Below are positions 5,603 to 53,360 of a stretch of 64,000 nucleotides of DNA, piece after piece. The DNA lies in assembly GCA_964601505.1 (NCBI GenBank), contig CAZRNR010000006.1, positions 2,515 through 66,514 of the forward strand. Direction: 5' to 3'. This DNA comes from an uncultured bacterium. Its GTDB lineage: Bacteria > Calescibacteriota > Calescibacteriia > Calescibacteriales > Calescibacteriaceae. The notes below the pieces were generated by a model. That model saw only the letters and a list, made by a program, of their open reading frames with translations, had not been told where the DNA came from and made no database searches. The stretch's first letter is position 1; every line of letters starts with the position of its first letter. The position numbers and the translations under genes are program-made.

Positions 5603-6354
5603 CATATCGTTTCAACAAGAGTGCTATGCCTTAATCTCTCAAGATCTGTTTGAGGTAAATTCCCAAACTTTTTTTTCTCTGGGATTCTTGGTTTTGGGAC
5701 CTCATCTGTATGAGAATACAAGATATCCTTTGAAAAACTGCCTTTTTTCAATATTTTATATTCAAGCCTTCTCAATAGAGAAAACAATTCATCATCTACC
5801 AATTCACCTTCAGCAGATGAATCATTTATAAAAAAGATATTTCTTGGAGCTAGATTTTTAACAGATATAGCTGTTTCCGTATTGAAGCGATCCTTTTCTG
5901 TCTGCTTCCATATCTCACCTTCACACTTTATACAATAAAGGAAATAACCTATATCCGAGGTAAATATTATTAATTTCCCCCCGGAAACCCTTGCAAAAAA
6001 AGGTGTCCCGAAGAAACTTATAATTTCGCTATGCCTCTCAACATTTGTAAAATCAATAAAAATCCTACCATAGAAGAAGGTAAGGTTATCTTTGAAAACA
6101 CCAACCTTTGTTTCCTCATCTACTATCATTTCAATATTCTCCGATGGTTTATATAAACTCTGCTTTGTCAGGAAAAGTTTTGAGAATCTCCCAGATTTCA
6201 GGAAAAAATCAAAATCTGGTAAAGCTATTGCGTTAATATTTTTCTGGGATATCCTGACCTCATTTTCTTTGATCGAAAGGATGGAGTTATTACCATCAAT
6301 GTATTCTATATTCCAGCCAAGAGATAGAACTAACAAAAGAAGATTTTGAAGCAT
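5557..6354 (-). CDS. hypothetical secreted protein
   Basis: 265 aa. Hydrophobic N-terminus MLQNLLLLVLSLGW. GGGAGAG-type SD upstream. Its 3' end overlaps proS by 46 nt in convergent orientation. I recognise no family. Confidence 0.6.
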   Translation of the reverse strand: MLQNLLLLVLSLGWNIEYIDGNNSILSIKENEVRISQKNINAIALPDFDFFLKSGRFSKLFLTKQSLYKPSENIEMIVDEETKVGVFKDNLTFFYGRIFIDFTNVERHSEIISFFGTPFFARVSGGKLIIFTSDIGYFLYCIKCEGEIWKQTEKDRFNTETAISVKNLAPRNIFFINDSSAEGELVDDELFSLLRRLEYKILKKGSFSKDILYSHTDEVPKPRIPEKKKFGNLPQTDLERLRHSTLVETICYDLLKSGKSCDIKK

Positions 6355-32217: not shown

Positions 32218-32908
32218 AAAAAACATAACAGGCGTCGAGGGAACATTTTCCGAACTTCTTGAAATAGTAGATACTTTAAGAAAAGAGTGTCCATGGGACA
32301 GAGAACAAAAGGTTGAAGATATAAAGTTTAAGTTAGTAGAAGAATCCTATGAGGCTATTGATAGGTTTGATAAAGGAGACCTAGAGGGGTTCGCGTCTGA
32401 ACTTGGAGATGTTCTTTTGGTTGTTCTCTTTATGATAAGAATAATGCAGGATGAAGGGAAGTTTGATTACAAGTATGTTCTGAAAAAACTGATTCACAAG
32501 CTAATAGAGAGACACCCACATGTTTTTGGGGAGAAAAAATTGGATAACGCGAAGGATGTTCTGAGAAACTGGGAGAATATGAAAGGGAAAATAAAAAAGG
32601 ATGATTTTAACATATCTATGCCATCCCTTTACCTTATTTACAGAATCATCGAAAAGATAAGGAACAAGCTTGGGAGTGTTGAGGATCTCAAGGAGAGATT
32701 TAAGGTTGATAGGATTGACAATTCTGATATTCCAGAATTGATTTTCAGGTATAGCGTTTTGTGCGCTCTTGACGGTATAAATTTAGAGGATGAGATGAGA
32801 AAAAGAGCCATCCAGATCATTGAGAAATTAGAAAATAGTGAAGACTTTCTTGTGGATAGTCTTTTCAATACAAATAATCCAAAACCTAAAAAATCCTTGG
32901 AATCGTGA
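32207..32908 (+). CDS. mazG: nucleoside triphosphate pyrophosphohydrolase MazG
   Basis: 233 aa. LRKECPWDREQ, EESYEAID, ELGDVLL, IERHPHVF. Confidence 0.9.
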   Translation: MGNKKNITGVEGTFSELLEIVDTLRKECPWDREQKVEDIKFKLVEESYEAIDRFDKGDLEGFASELGDVLLVVLFMIRIMQDEGKFDYKYVLKKLIHKLIERHPHVFGEKKLDNAKDVLRNWENMKGKIKKDDFNISMPSLYLIYRIIEKIRNKLGSVEDLKERFKVDRIDNSDIPELIFRYSVLCALDGINLEDEMRKRAIQIIEKLENSEDFLVDSLFNTNNPKPKKSLES

Positions 32909-33110
32909 ACTACTCCATCTTATAGAAGATGGAGCTTCCTGCTTCAACGAGGCTCATAGGCCTCTCCACAGTTCGGGACGTCCCTACCCTACCACCCTTG
33001 ACAACCCTTTGGTTATCAGGGTTATAATTATAATCAGAAACTGACTTCTTGTCAAATTCTTGAAATTCATCTCCACACCGTAGAGAATGGAGACTTCTTG
33101 CAAGATTCAG
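32905..33110. repeat. 206-nt structured repeat, copy A (more degenerate copy)
   Basis: Aligns end to end with 52395-52600, with scattered substitutions and three small indels. Starts inside the mazG stop codon. 22-nt hairpins at 32913-32934 and 33071-33092. Confidence 0.8.
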
Positions 33111-33207
33111 GTGAAATCTTCTAATCTCCTTAACAAAAACAAAAATAAATAACAAGACAAAACTGAATTTTCCAACTTAAATATAAAAGAATAGAAAATA
33201 AGATAAT

Positions 33208-45010: not shown

Positions 45011-45100
45011 GGAGAGGTGGCCGAGAGGTCTAAGGCAGCAGCCTGCTAAGCTGCGACGGAGTTAAAATCCGTCTCGCGGGTTCGAATCCCGCCCTCTCCG
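45011..45100 (+). tRNA. tRNA-Ser (GCT)
   Basis: Acceptor GGAGAGG/CCTCTCC. Anticodon arm GCAGC-CTGCTAA-GCTGC. Long variable arm ACGGA ... TCCGT. T arm GCGGG-TTCGAAT-CCCGC. Discriminator G. CCA is not encoded. Confidence 0.9.
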
Positions 45101-45191: not shown

Positions 45192-45271
45192 ATCTATAGT
45201 AAATCACAAAAAATTTTCAACATTGTTGATTTCACTCACTTGTCAAAATTTTACTGTGATTTACTATAGAT
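45192..45271. repeat. inverted repeat upstream of flhB: 17-nt perfect arms, extendable to ~26 nt imperfect, 46-nt spacer
   Basis: ATCTATAGTAAATCACA (45192-45208) and TGTGATTTACTATAGAT (45255-45271) are exact reverse complements. The flanking AAAATTTT tracts also pair. Confidence 0.7.
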
Positions 45272-51529: not shown

Positions 51530-52375
51530 ATGGGAAGATATGACGTATCTTTAAAAAATTTGTTGGAGGGTTCTGAAGCAGAAATATTATCTTTATTCGG
51601 GATTAAAGTAAAGAGGTTAAAAGTTCAAGATATTGAATTCTCTGAGGTAAGAGAAAGAAGAGCTGACAGGATATACATTGGGTTTATAAAGTCAAAGAAA
51701 GTTGTATTTCATTTTGAGATACAGTTGCAGTATCAGAGAGAATTCCCGTTGAGGATGCTTGAATATTTTCTCCTTCTGAAAAAGAGGTATAAAGACAATG
51801 AGATCTGGCAGATAGTTTTATGTGTTGGAAATAAAGTTCCTTCAAGATTTGTTCAAAAGACACCATTCAGCGGAGTTGAGTATCATTTCAAAGTTATAGA
51901 CATAACAAAGATACCTTTTAGAAGATTTCAGAATAGTAGGGATCCGAATGTAAATGCTCTTGTGATTTTGAGTAGGGATGTGGATGTGAGAAAGATTTTT
52001 GAGAAGATAATGAATTATAGATTTTTGTCAAGACAGAAGTTAATGGAGTTAGTGAATAAGATATATATACTATCAGTTTTGGTAGGGAGAGATAGGGAGG
52101 TGGAGAGGGAGATGGAAGAGATAGGGAAGATAGACCTGACAAAAACAAGACTCTTTAAAAGAGGTCTAAGAAAAGGTATAGAGAAGGGACTTAAGGAAGG
52201 GCTCAAGGAAGGTATAGAGATAGACATAGAAGAAAGGTTTGGTGAGAAGGGGAAATATTTGGTAGAGCTACTAAAAAACATAAAGGATATAGGGAAATTG
52301 AGGGAGATAAAAAGAGCTATAAACAAAGCGGAAAGTATTCAAGATATTGAAAAAATACTTCGGGACTCAAAATAA
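51530..52375 (+). CDS. Rpn-family / TIGR01784-like PD-(D/E)XK nuclease (putative transposase), DUF4351-like C-terminus
   Basis: 281 aa. The nuclease-core pattern E ... RADRIYIGF ... VFHFEIQ, then RMLEYFLLL. The C-terminus has repetitive KGIEKGLKEGLKEGIE. A relic paralog lies at 40486. Confidence 0.6.
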   Translation: MGRYDVSLKNLLEGSEAEILSLFGIKVKRLKVQDIEFSEVRERRADRIYIGFIKSKKVVFHFEIQLQYQREFPLRMLEYFLLLKKRYKDNEIWQIVLCVGNKVPSRFVQKTPFSGVEYHFKVIDITKIPFRRFQNSRDPNVNALVILSRDVDVRKIFEKIMNYRFLSRQKLMELVNKIYILSVLVGRDREVEREMEEIGKIDLTKTRLFKRGLRKGIEKGLKEGLKEGIEIDIEERFGEKGKYLVELLKNIKDIGKLREIKRAINKAESIQDIEKILRDSK

Positions 52376-52394
52376 ATTTGTAAAGGTTATGTGA

Positions 52395-52600
52395 GTGAAC
52401 TACTCCATCTTATAGAAGATGGAGCTTCCTGCTTCAACGAGTCTATAAGCCTCTCCACAGGCGTAAGTTCGGGTAGTTCCTACCCTACCACCCTTGATGA
52501 ACCTTTGGTTATCAGGGTTATAATTATAATCCGAAACTGACTCAAGTTTTTGCAATTCATCTCCACCCTGTAGAGGATGGAGACTTCTTGCAAGATTCAG
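52395..52600. repeat. 206-nt structured repeat, copy B (better-paired hairpins)
   Basis: Begins 19 nt after the stop of the putative transposase gene. Hairpins: CTCCATCTT-ATAG-AAGATGGAG (52403-52424) and CTCCACCCT-GTAG-AGGATGGAG (52561-52582). Confidence 0.8.
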
Positions 52601-53360
52601 ATTAAAAGTGATTCAGAATGCTTTTGACTACACAACAAGATTTTATCATACCCAATTGCTGACCAATTATCTAAATTCTTACTCAGTTCTAAGGTGTTTA
52701 TCTGGTTAGGTGATAAGTTGGTATTCTACTTCAATCCTGTCTTCTGATATTACCCAAATTGTAAAATATCAAAAATAAAAAACTTCAGAGTAAGTATAAA
52801 AACTTCTACTGATTCCAAATGTAGAACTCCCTAAAAATTACTCTATTAAATATATACGATATCCTTACAAAAAGCTTGAATGAGAGAAGGAAGGTCAGGT
52901 GTTAAGATGTTTCCTGTCAAGGTGATGCAAAGAGAGCCCACAATGTCGTGTATTTGTAATGAAGGATTTAAGTAAGTTTTTACATTTTAATATTTCAGCT
53001 ACTTGAAATCTGCTATTTGCTTAATTAGGAATTACATTTCAATCTTTAATATAGTAAAATAAACGGTATTAAATCCTTTAGTGGTAAGAACTACAAATTT
53101 GAAAGCTTGTATTTTTATAGCTTCGCCACGAGCTGATTTCCTTAACTACTTTGTCAAATAAATATGTACCAAAAATTGTCAATTTCCTCTTGCATTGTAA
53201 GTGGAGGATAAAAATTTGTTGATAGAACACCTAAAGCTTGATTCCATGATTCTTTATTTAGGAACAAAGTGTCATTCCAAAATGGGAAATTAAAATTTTG
53301 AACTTTACAAATCACCAAAATTATCCATTAAAATCTTCCAGAAATTAAGGAGGTAAAGAT

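Follow-up and report, generated by a model that had tools for sequence, protein, structure and literature searches.

Two copies of a 206-nt repeat in an uncultured Calescibacteriaceae bacterium are very probably gene-less IS200/IS605 mini-elements carrying a solo omega-RNA scaffold

The locus described here raises a simple question: what is a structured sequence of 206 nucleotides (nt) that stands twice in 64,000 nt of DNA from an uncultured bacterium of the Calescibacteriaceae (contig CAZRNR010000006.1, positions 2,515 to 66,514; this whole stretch is called the window and is numbered from its own first letter)? Alignment by MAFFT and by a global pairwise method reproduced exactly the coordinates, the end-to-end match and the three indels (-1, +7 and -6 in copy B relative to copy A) given in a preliminary description: copies A (32905-33110) and B (52395-52600), both 206 nt long, are identical at 184 of 213 aligned columns, with 14 gap columns. 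On either side of both copies the homology ends abruptly and the flanks are unrelated. A repeat search returned the element, as three gap-free pieces, as the sole substantial dispersed repeat of the 64 kb, and a 25-mer taken from it occurs twice in the window against an expectation of 0; neither blastn with all family members nor the covariance model R1 described below found further copies or fragments within the window. Each copy is very probably a non-autonomous, gene-less mini-element of the IS200/IS605 type of insertion sequence (IS), similar to the palindrome-associated transposable elements (PATEs), which carries a solo omega-RNA scaffold on the minus strand. This reading is carried by homology and architecture, by a scaffold that ends exactly where the repeat does, by the many copies whose flanks are unrelated, by full-length relatives in which Y1 tnpA and tnpB are present, and by a conserved TTTAAC motif 5′ of the left end. 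What had been described as a structured non-coding repeat is thus real and rich in hairpins, but its meaningful strand is the minus strand, and it reads as a mobile element with transposon ends rather than a free-standing RNA gene.

Both copies have a GC content of 44%, whereas the window has 35.5% and the intergenic DNA next to them 21-30%, so that the enrichment noticed earlier holds; the rise is concentrated in the omega-RNA half of the element (52%). The open reading frames (ORFs) of 81 and 68 amino acids (aa) across copy A are not preserved in copy B, as had been stated. A frame common to both copies differs almost only non-synonymously and meets stops, and a protein-coding reading was dropped; the same frame was not detectable as a C-terminal remnant of TnpB either.

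At gathering thresholds, Rfam finds only two tRNAs in the whole window, and the earlier exclusion of RNase P, signal recognition particle RNA, tmRNA, 6S RNA, a T-box or a riboswitch is borne out, no family passing its threshold on the element. The Rfam comparison proposed at that stage did turn up a known family, RF03064 (RAGATH-18), but below the curated cut-off: cmscan aligned it on the minus strand of copy A from 32972 to 32936 (31.5 bits, E 2e-4 to 5e-4) and on the minus strand of copy B from 52461 to 52426 (32.7 bits, E 1.6e-4). Model positions 1-71 align to both copies with the 36-nt apical stem deleted, leaving a short RAGATH-18-like core, CUGUGGAG...CGUUGAAGCAGGAA, in which nearly all conserved nucleotides (CUGUGGAG ... 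CG.UGAAGCAGGAA) are kept and the P1 and P2 helices are present. RAGATH-18 is the core of the right-end element RNA (reRNA), or omega RNA, that guides IS607 TnpB nucleases, whose scaffold of ~187 nt is followed on the 3′ side by a variable sequence serving as the guide (PMC11061315).

The link between the short core and tnpB can be seen far outside the window. A generic core pattern, CTGTGGAG-N8-30-CGNTGAAGCAGGAA, was scanned over one genome per species, and the matches listed include more than 120 stretches from enterobacteria, cyanobacteria, actinobacteria, Clostridia and archaea. Among those with enough upstream DNA, the core often lies 36-39 nt past the end of an ORF of 360-445 aa, or overlaps that end, and all four such ORFs scanned are TnpB (PF12323, PF01385 and PF07282). 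The tnpB-linked loci are laid out as a hairpin, a linker (UUAACGC), the core, another hairpin, (U)AGUUCAC and then unrelated DNA. In Clostridia, Methanoperedens and other loci (U)AGUUCAC closes the scaffold, and exactly the same endpoint is met on the minus strand at 32905 and 52395; the terminal hairpins of these loci are equivalent, with differing sequences, and covary between distant loci. When a covariance model (R1) built only from 26 tnpB-linked RNAs was run on the 64 kb, it gave two matches only, each of them on the minus strand and spanning the model from end to end, namely copy B (63.2 bits, E 3.7e-12) and copy A (40.7 bits, E 2.5e-7), the independent information in these scores coming only from the flanking hairpin, the linker, the P2 pairing and the AGUUCAC end.

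Several side observations concern the same scan. In many TnpBs among the matches listed (L005-L124) the core is translated as a C-terminal tail, ...TPVE...LKQE. Some loci with ample upstream DNA but no tnpB (for example L005, L019, L020, L029 and L030) look like solo copies in other phyla. Among the matches listed, the short RAGATH-18-like core is widespread under the Rfam threshold in enterobacteria, cyanobacteria, actinobacteria and archaea.

The hairpins first noticed by eye are real, with minus-strand single-sequence folds at z = -3.7 for copy A, which folds on its own into the family consensus, and z = -2.1 for copy B. For 36 family members RNAalifold recovered the stem-loop, P1, P2 and the terminal hairpin, in a structure in which 98.4% of cells pair; when the structures were slid by 1-3 columns as a control, 33-53% did. 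Covariation, which had been suggested as something to look for, was found in the 36-member alignment: six pairs changed on both sides, in 33 cells, with the covariation score and cell count reached by 0 of 500 shuffles and the count of both-side pairs by 3 of 500. In P2 alone, four of the five pairs carry compensatory changes across the family. P1 and most of the terminal hairpin are invariant in this set, partly because of the way its members were retrieved.

A search for more copies had been suggested as well; it added none in the window, but a metagenome scan with a 21-mer across the core and the right-end (RE) hairpin found 56 loci, representing 49 distinct insertion sites. Ten of the 49 sites lie directly behind tnpB or tnpB fragments, 30 are mini-elements with a left-end (LE) hairpin within 260 nt, 6 are other gene-less copies and 3 are at contig ends, giving 36 gene-less against 10 tnpB-linked copies, or ~3.6 to 1. 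The tnpB-linked members include L130, L132, L154, L156, L158, L162 and L163. The full-length element L132 consists, in order, of TTTAAC, the LE hairpin (GCAAGAAGTCTCCACCTTCTATAAGGTGGAGATGAATTGC), TTGACA-N17-TATAAT, a Y1 tnpA, tnpB, the omega-RNA scaffold and AGTTCAC; its TnpA is a Y1 transposase (PF01797, 8e-42) and its TnpB has 377 aa. L162 has the same LE and promoter together with a tnpB of full domain set, and tblastn with the L132 TnpA found L162 at 82% identity and fragments in L156.

These relatives bear on whether the repeat could instead be a remnant of an IS607-family element, with its serine-recombinase TnpA. [quoted passage not shown] Two Clostridia loci (L032 and L083) have no adjacent tnpA and say nothing on the short core in IS607.

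In the minis, LE and the promoter are retained together with the final ~95-120 nt of the element, and ~30 of these metagenomic minis align end to end with copy A. One of them, L173, still holds codons of the TnpB C-terminus, and this remnant, together with the parts that the minis retain, identifies them as internal-deletion derivatives. Read from its sequence, the element is an LE (hairpin and tnpA promoter) that an internal deletion has joined to the last ~120 nt, i.e. the omega-RNA scaffold, the final hairpin of which doubles as the RE hairpin before the scaffold stops at AGUUCAC. Since minis clearly arise by internal deletion, as L173 and the other deletion endpoints in L128, L146 and L153 attest, A and B might be two independent remnants of full-length IS elements that decayed in place, no 206-nt mini having transposed. 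The two copies, however, have one deletion junction and one LE subtype, beginning CTGAATCTT, which is also found in L134 and L143, and the same internal region and junction recur in L145/L152 and L169. A single junction common to A, B and relatives with differing flanks means that the junction arose once and that the mini itself spread, which makes independent decay quite improbable. As a separate observation, the minis L144, L164 and L177 have a G-rich insertion, CTGGGTGTGGCTGGCGTAGGGGGGAG, in the P1/GGAG part of the core, disrupting CUGUGGAG.

The ends of the element are equally informative. Of 35 unique insertions, 25 have TTTAAC at a distance of 8-9 nt upstream of GCAAGAAG, the DNA further upstream being unrelated, and most of the remaining insertions have one-mismatch variants of it. 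The flanks 5′ of LE in the window are TTTCAC for copy A (33111-33116, minus strand, TAM-like, TAM standing for transposon-adjacent motif) and TTTAAT for copy B (52601-52606, minus strand), each one mismatch from TTTAAC as judged by comparison with the family motif. The LE of the element reads CTGAATCTTGCAAGAAGTCTCC... and its RE ...GGAGTAGTTCAC. The LE hairpin stem resembles the RE hairpin stem, the ends are asymmetric and the orientation is defined; no target-site duplication is visible at the flanks of A or B.

In IS608 and ISDra2, subterminal hairpins mark the ends, cleavage takes place at a distance of ~17-19 nt from the LE hairpin, on its 5′ side, and of ~8-10 nt from the RE hairpin, on its 3′ side, and the element inserts 3′ of a short motif that is fixed, no target being duplicated. 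The present element is closely similar, with TTTAAC 17 nt before the foot of the LE hairpin and its end (AGTTCAC) 8 nt after the RE hairpin; it differs in the motif, which is TTAC or TTGAT there and TTTAAC here, and the likeness is one read from sequence geometry. By analogy, TTTAAC would be both the insertion target and the TAM of TnpB. The donor joints are predicted to be ...AGATTTCAC joined to GATTCCAAGG... for copy A and ...CTTTTAAT joined to TCACATAACC... for copy B.

Copy A, on the minus strand, is a gene-less IS200/IS605 mini-element complete in its 206 nt, with LE at 33110 and RE at 32905. Its LE subterminal hairpin, UCUCCA...UGGAGA (33070-33093), is the same as that at LE of L132, L162 and the minis, and is presumed to be the binding site of Y1 TnpA. 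A promoter scan placed a sigma-70 promoter, TTGACA-N17-TATAAT (12 of 12 positions), at 33027-33055, pointing toward the omega-RNA scaffold; a homologous promoter immediately precedes the tnpA start codon in L132 and L162, so that the element retains the tnpA promoter directly upstream of its scaffold. Transcription would start near 33020 and yield a scaffold of ~118 nt plus flank. The predicted fold begins with a transcript 5′ hairpin, AACCC-UGAUAACCAAA-GGGUU (33003-33023), the counterpart of which in the other subfamily is GUCCC...GGGAC, and continues with an altered stem-loop before the core (GGGACGUCCC, 32975-32989; helix 1 of the family alignment, with compensatory changes). The RAGATH-18-like core matched by cmscan (32936-32972) has P1 as CUGU/GCAG, P2 as GAGGCC/GGCCUC, and the conserved GGAG and CGUUGAAGCAGGAA; the RE hairpin, which folds as the last scaffold stem-loop, CUCCAUCUU-CUAU-AAGAUGGAG, occupies 32913-32934, and the terminal AGUUCAC (32905-32911) ends both scaffold and RE. 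As had been described, this RE end overlaps the mazG stop codon of the plus strand, with lon just downstream. From the architecture of omega RNAs (PMC11061315), the next 20 nt of flank, GAUUCCAAGGAUUUUUUAGG (32885-32904, minus strand), are the predicted guide, antisense to the last mazG codons.

Copy B, likewise a complete 206-nt mini-element on the minus strand (52395-52600) by alignment and by R1, combines a canonical scaffold with a damaged promoter. After the LE hairpin (52560-52583), a 6-nt deletion destroys the -35 spacing; the promoter scan called no promoter here, and the best remaining sequence, as read directly, is TTGAGT-N17-TATAAC (52517-52545). The canonical stem-loop GGGUAG-GAA-CUACCC (52471-52485) is followed by the linker CUUACGC, the RAGATH-18-like core matched by cmscan with RF03064 (52426-52461), the RE hairpin or terminal stem-loop (52403-52424) and the AGUUCAC end (52395-52401), beyond which the flank-derived UCACAUAACCUUUACAAAUU (52375-52394, minus strand) would be the guide by the same architecture. 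Copy A is without this 7-nt linker, a gap that is common to L143, L145 and L169, whereas the linker is present in every tnpB-linked copy. Both window copies therefore look partly disabled, A by loss of the linker, B by loss of the -35 spacing and both by off-consensus TAM flanks, which may block excision.

The two copies are kept in the same-species contigs L186, L191 and L192, while contig L181 breaks inside copy A, as assemblies commonly do at repeats. A closely related strain (99-kb contig, sample 3300000865) has deletions in both copies: in this sister strain (L185 2786-2790 versus window 32893-32993) 101 nt are missing, comprising scaffold, RE and 12 nt of the end of mazG, so that the deletion spans the RE/guide junction and MazG is lengthened from 233 to 239 aa, and in L190 124 nt are deleted inside copy B (window 52446-52569). 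The 101-nt deletion may be either a scar left by self-targeting of the nuclease or a chance loss. In a species with 72% MazG identity no element follows mazG, the flanks there being too diverged to define the site. For copy B, the element-less joint aligns across the insertion point to intergenic DNA of the relative L001, though modestly (score 29, reached by 5 of 500 shuffles), and a direct alignment of the downstream regions of the window and L001 was uninformative. Taken together, the lesions of A and B, their off-consensus flanks, the lack of tnpA and tnpB in the window, the sister-strain deletions and the absence in the relative indicate what appears to be an insertion specific to this lineage, on which selection acts little or not at all.

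These findings bear on two explanations that would give the repeat a role for its host. In the first, it would be a free-standing structured small RNA or a cis-regulatory host RNA gene on the plus strand, duplicated and acting on lon or neighbouring genes. A GC-rich, hairpin-rich and non-coding sequence would suit such a gene, copy A lies just upstream of lon, and the plus-strand folds, too, surpass those of shuffles (z = -3.3 for A and -2.0 for B). Homology to characterised RNAs is nevertheless all on the minus strand, copies occur in unrelated contexts on many contigs, and the unit bears a target motif and, at LE and RE, hairpins of the transposon type; in addition, the sister strain tolerates the 101-nt and 124-nt deletions and the relative with the 72%-identical MazG has no element behind mazG, so that a host RNA gene deserves hardly any credence. 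In the second explanation, the element would be a solo guide RNA domesticated for host regulation, as with the TldR-type nuclease-dead TnpBs, the mazG-antisense guide of copy A being functional. The perfect consensus promoter of copy A and the retention of the scaffold in most gene-less copies, and of a near-consensus promoter in 27 of 36, would be expected in this case. On the other hand, the guide is whatever flanks RE, the conserved 7-nt linker is missing from copy A, a deletion in the sister strain has taken RE and the guide region of A, no TnpB-like gene is near in the 64-kb window and the element is absent in the related species; domestication is thus very improbable.

A number of points also weigh against a mini-element with a solo omega RNA. 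The RAGATH-18 scores of both copies are under the RF03064 gathering score of 44.9 bits, and the core match of R1 is partly circular, because its training loci were retrieved by a core pattern derived from the window copies. No clean empty site was found, and formally TTTAAC might belong to the element, as its first bases, and not be its target. Searches of the window found neither a tnpB (tblastn and a hidden Markov model of 28 TnpBs, nothing at E < 0.05) nor a Y1 tnpA (tblastn with the L132 TnpA); the stretch searched being these 64 kb, a TnpB or TnpA acting in trans in this organism is hypothetical. Finally, given the lesions in A and B and the deletions in the sister strain, the window copies may no longer do anything.

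If the mini-element reading is right, the most likely course is that a Y1 TnpA from elsewhere would move the mini as a single strand of DNA, excising it and inserting it 3′ of TTTAAC. The promoter that it retains would transcribe the scaffold and read ~16-20 nt into the right-hand flank, thus supplying the guide. After excision, a TnpB provided in trans could cut the empty donor joint (TAM plus flank), and recombination would then restore the element. Such a cut-and-restore scheme has been proposed for IS200/IS605 elements, and omega-RNA-encoding PATEs that need TnpB in trans have been mentioned (PMC10055086). A bolder idea, which we regard as tentative and on the whole rather doubtful, is that those gene-less minis that bear a promoter act as 'guide-only' selfish elements, each transcribing its own omega RNA from the retained tnpA promoter and borrowing a TnpB encoded elsewhere to defend its insertion site. 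If true, it would explain the ~3.6 to 1 excess of gene-less over tnpB-linked copies in these communities, and also why most of the gene-less copies keep the whole scaffold of ~95-120 nt although transposition should need the end hairpins only; the terminal hairpin would then serve as a TnpA binding site in DNA and as the last omega-RNA stem in RNA.

Compared with known systems, the element shares with RAGATH-18-derived reRNA (Ren et al. 2024, PMC11061315) the core CUGUGGAG...CG.UGAAGCAGGAA and the P1 and P2 helices, and differs from it in lacking the 36-nt apical stem and in scoring under the gathering cut-off. In ISFba1 the 3′ flank is 64 nt, whereas here it is one hairpin of 31 nt, and unlike the elements with IS607 reRNA, the full-length relatives carry a Y1 TnpA of the IS605 type. 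As in TnpB omega RNAs in general, the scaffold ends at the transposon right end with a variable flank, the guide, coming next, and homologous copies stand at the 3′ end of tnpB elsewhere; the window RNA differs in standing alone, with no tnpB within the 64 kb. The element also resembles PATEs (Meers et al. 2023, PMC10055086), which are likewise gene-less, ~200 nt long and multi-copy, with LE and RE hairpins and a motif 5′ of LE, and among these the omega-RNA-encoding ones, since the omega RNA of the element, too, would need TnpB in trans; compared with the published PATEs it forms a sequence family that is new and comes from a low-GC bacterium, uncultivated, and the community around it. Like miniature inverted-repeat transposable elements (MITEs) and the repetitive extragenic palindromic (REP) and Correia repeats, the element is short, non-coding, hairpin-forming and dispersed, but it has no terminal inverted repeats or target-site duplications, its ends are asymmetric and oriented, and it holds a guide-RNA scaffold.

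An omega RNA within a PATE is a kind of element that has already been described, and there is nothing conceptually new in it. What has changed is that an unexplained structured repeat is now annotated as a mobile element, with its strand, ends, target motif and parts fixed. Points of interest are the RAGATH-18 core in a Y1-TnpA context, the reuse of the tnpA promoter for a solo guide RNA and the excess of gene-less copies. The comparison shows the RAGATH-18 core minus its apical stem to be a general TnpB guide-RNA core, also in elements with Y1 TnpA and in many phyla; because such cores score below the Rfam threshold, these RNAs are missed by routine annotation. The compact scaffold family of ~118 nt, its candidate TAM TTTAAC and the matching TnpB genes (L132, L154, L162 and L163) are potential genome-editing reagents, which might be thermostable should they come from a hot-spring community, an origin to which the sample labels point. 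The promoter-bearing gene-less excess also offers a data set for asking if solo omega RNAs act in trans.

Next to copy B, a 281-aa ORF (51530-52375, plus strand) had been taken for a putative transposase gene that the element follows. This ORF proved unrelated: it is convergent with the element, matches no Pfam or NCBIfam family, and has distant homologues named YhgA-like/TIGR01784 transposase, one of them with a sub-threshold PF04754 match. Its exact sequence is found on one contig only, and homologues of 82-83% identity stand in a different gene context in a relative. Having no family match, only weakly YhgA-like homologues and close homologues without an adjacent element, it was rejected as a partner of the element, and it may itself be mobile. 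In L190 a 73-nt deletion (window 51966-52039) splits this YhgA-like ORF into 146 and 98 aa.

On the other side of copy B, the 760 nt upstream of rplA (52601-53360) contain no ORF of at least 60 aa and no Rfam family at gathering score, and no rplK precedes rplA. An intergenic motif of ~80 nt lies here at 53142-53222 (TTAACTRCTTYGTCAAATAAA..ATTGTCAATTT..GTGGAGGATAAAA.TTT.TTGA) and recurs in L169 (379-454) at 84% identity and in similar form in L001 (~6215-6300); perhaps this is another small repeat, mobile or regulatory. A stretch of 98 nt (53104-53201), with most of this motif within it, is missing from the sister strain L190. Elsewhere in the window, a 31-nt inverted repeat with 84% complementarity and an 18-nt spacer occupies 45192-45271, ~90 nt downstream of a tRNA gene (45011-45100).

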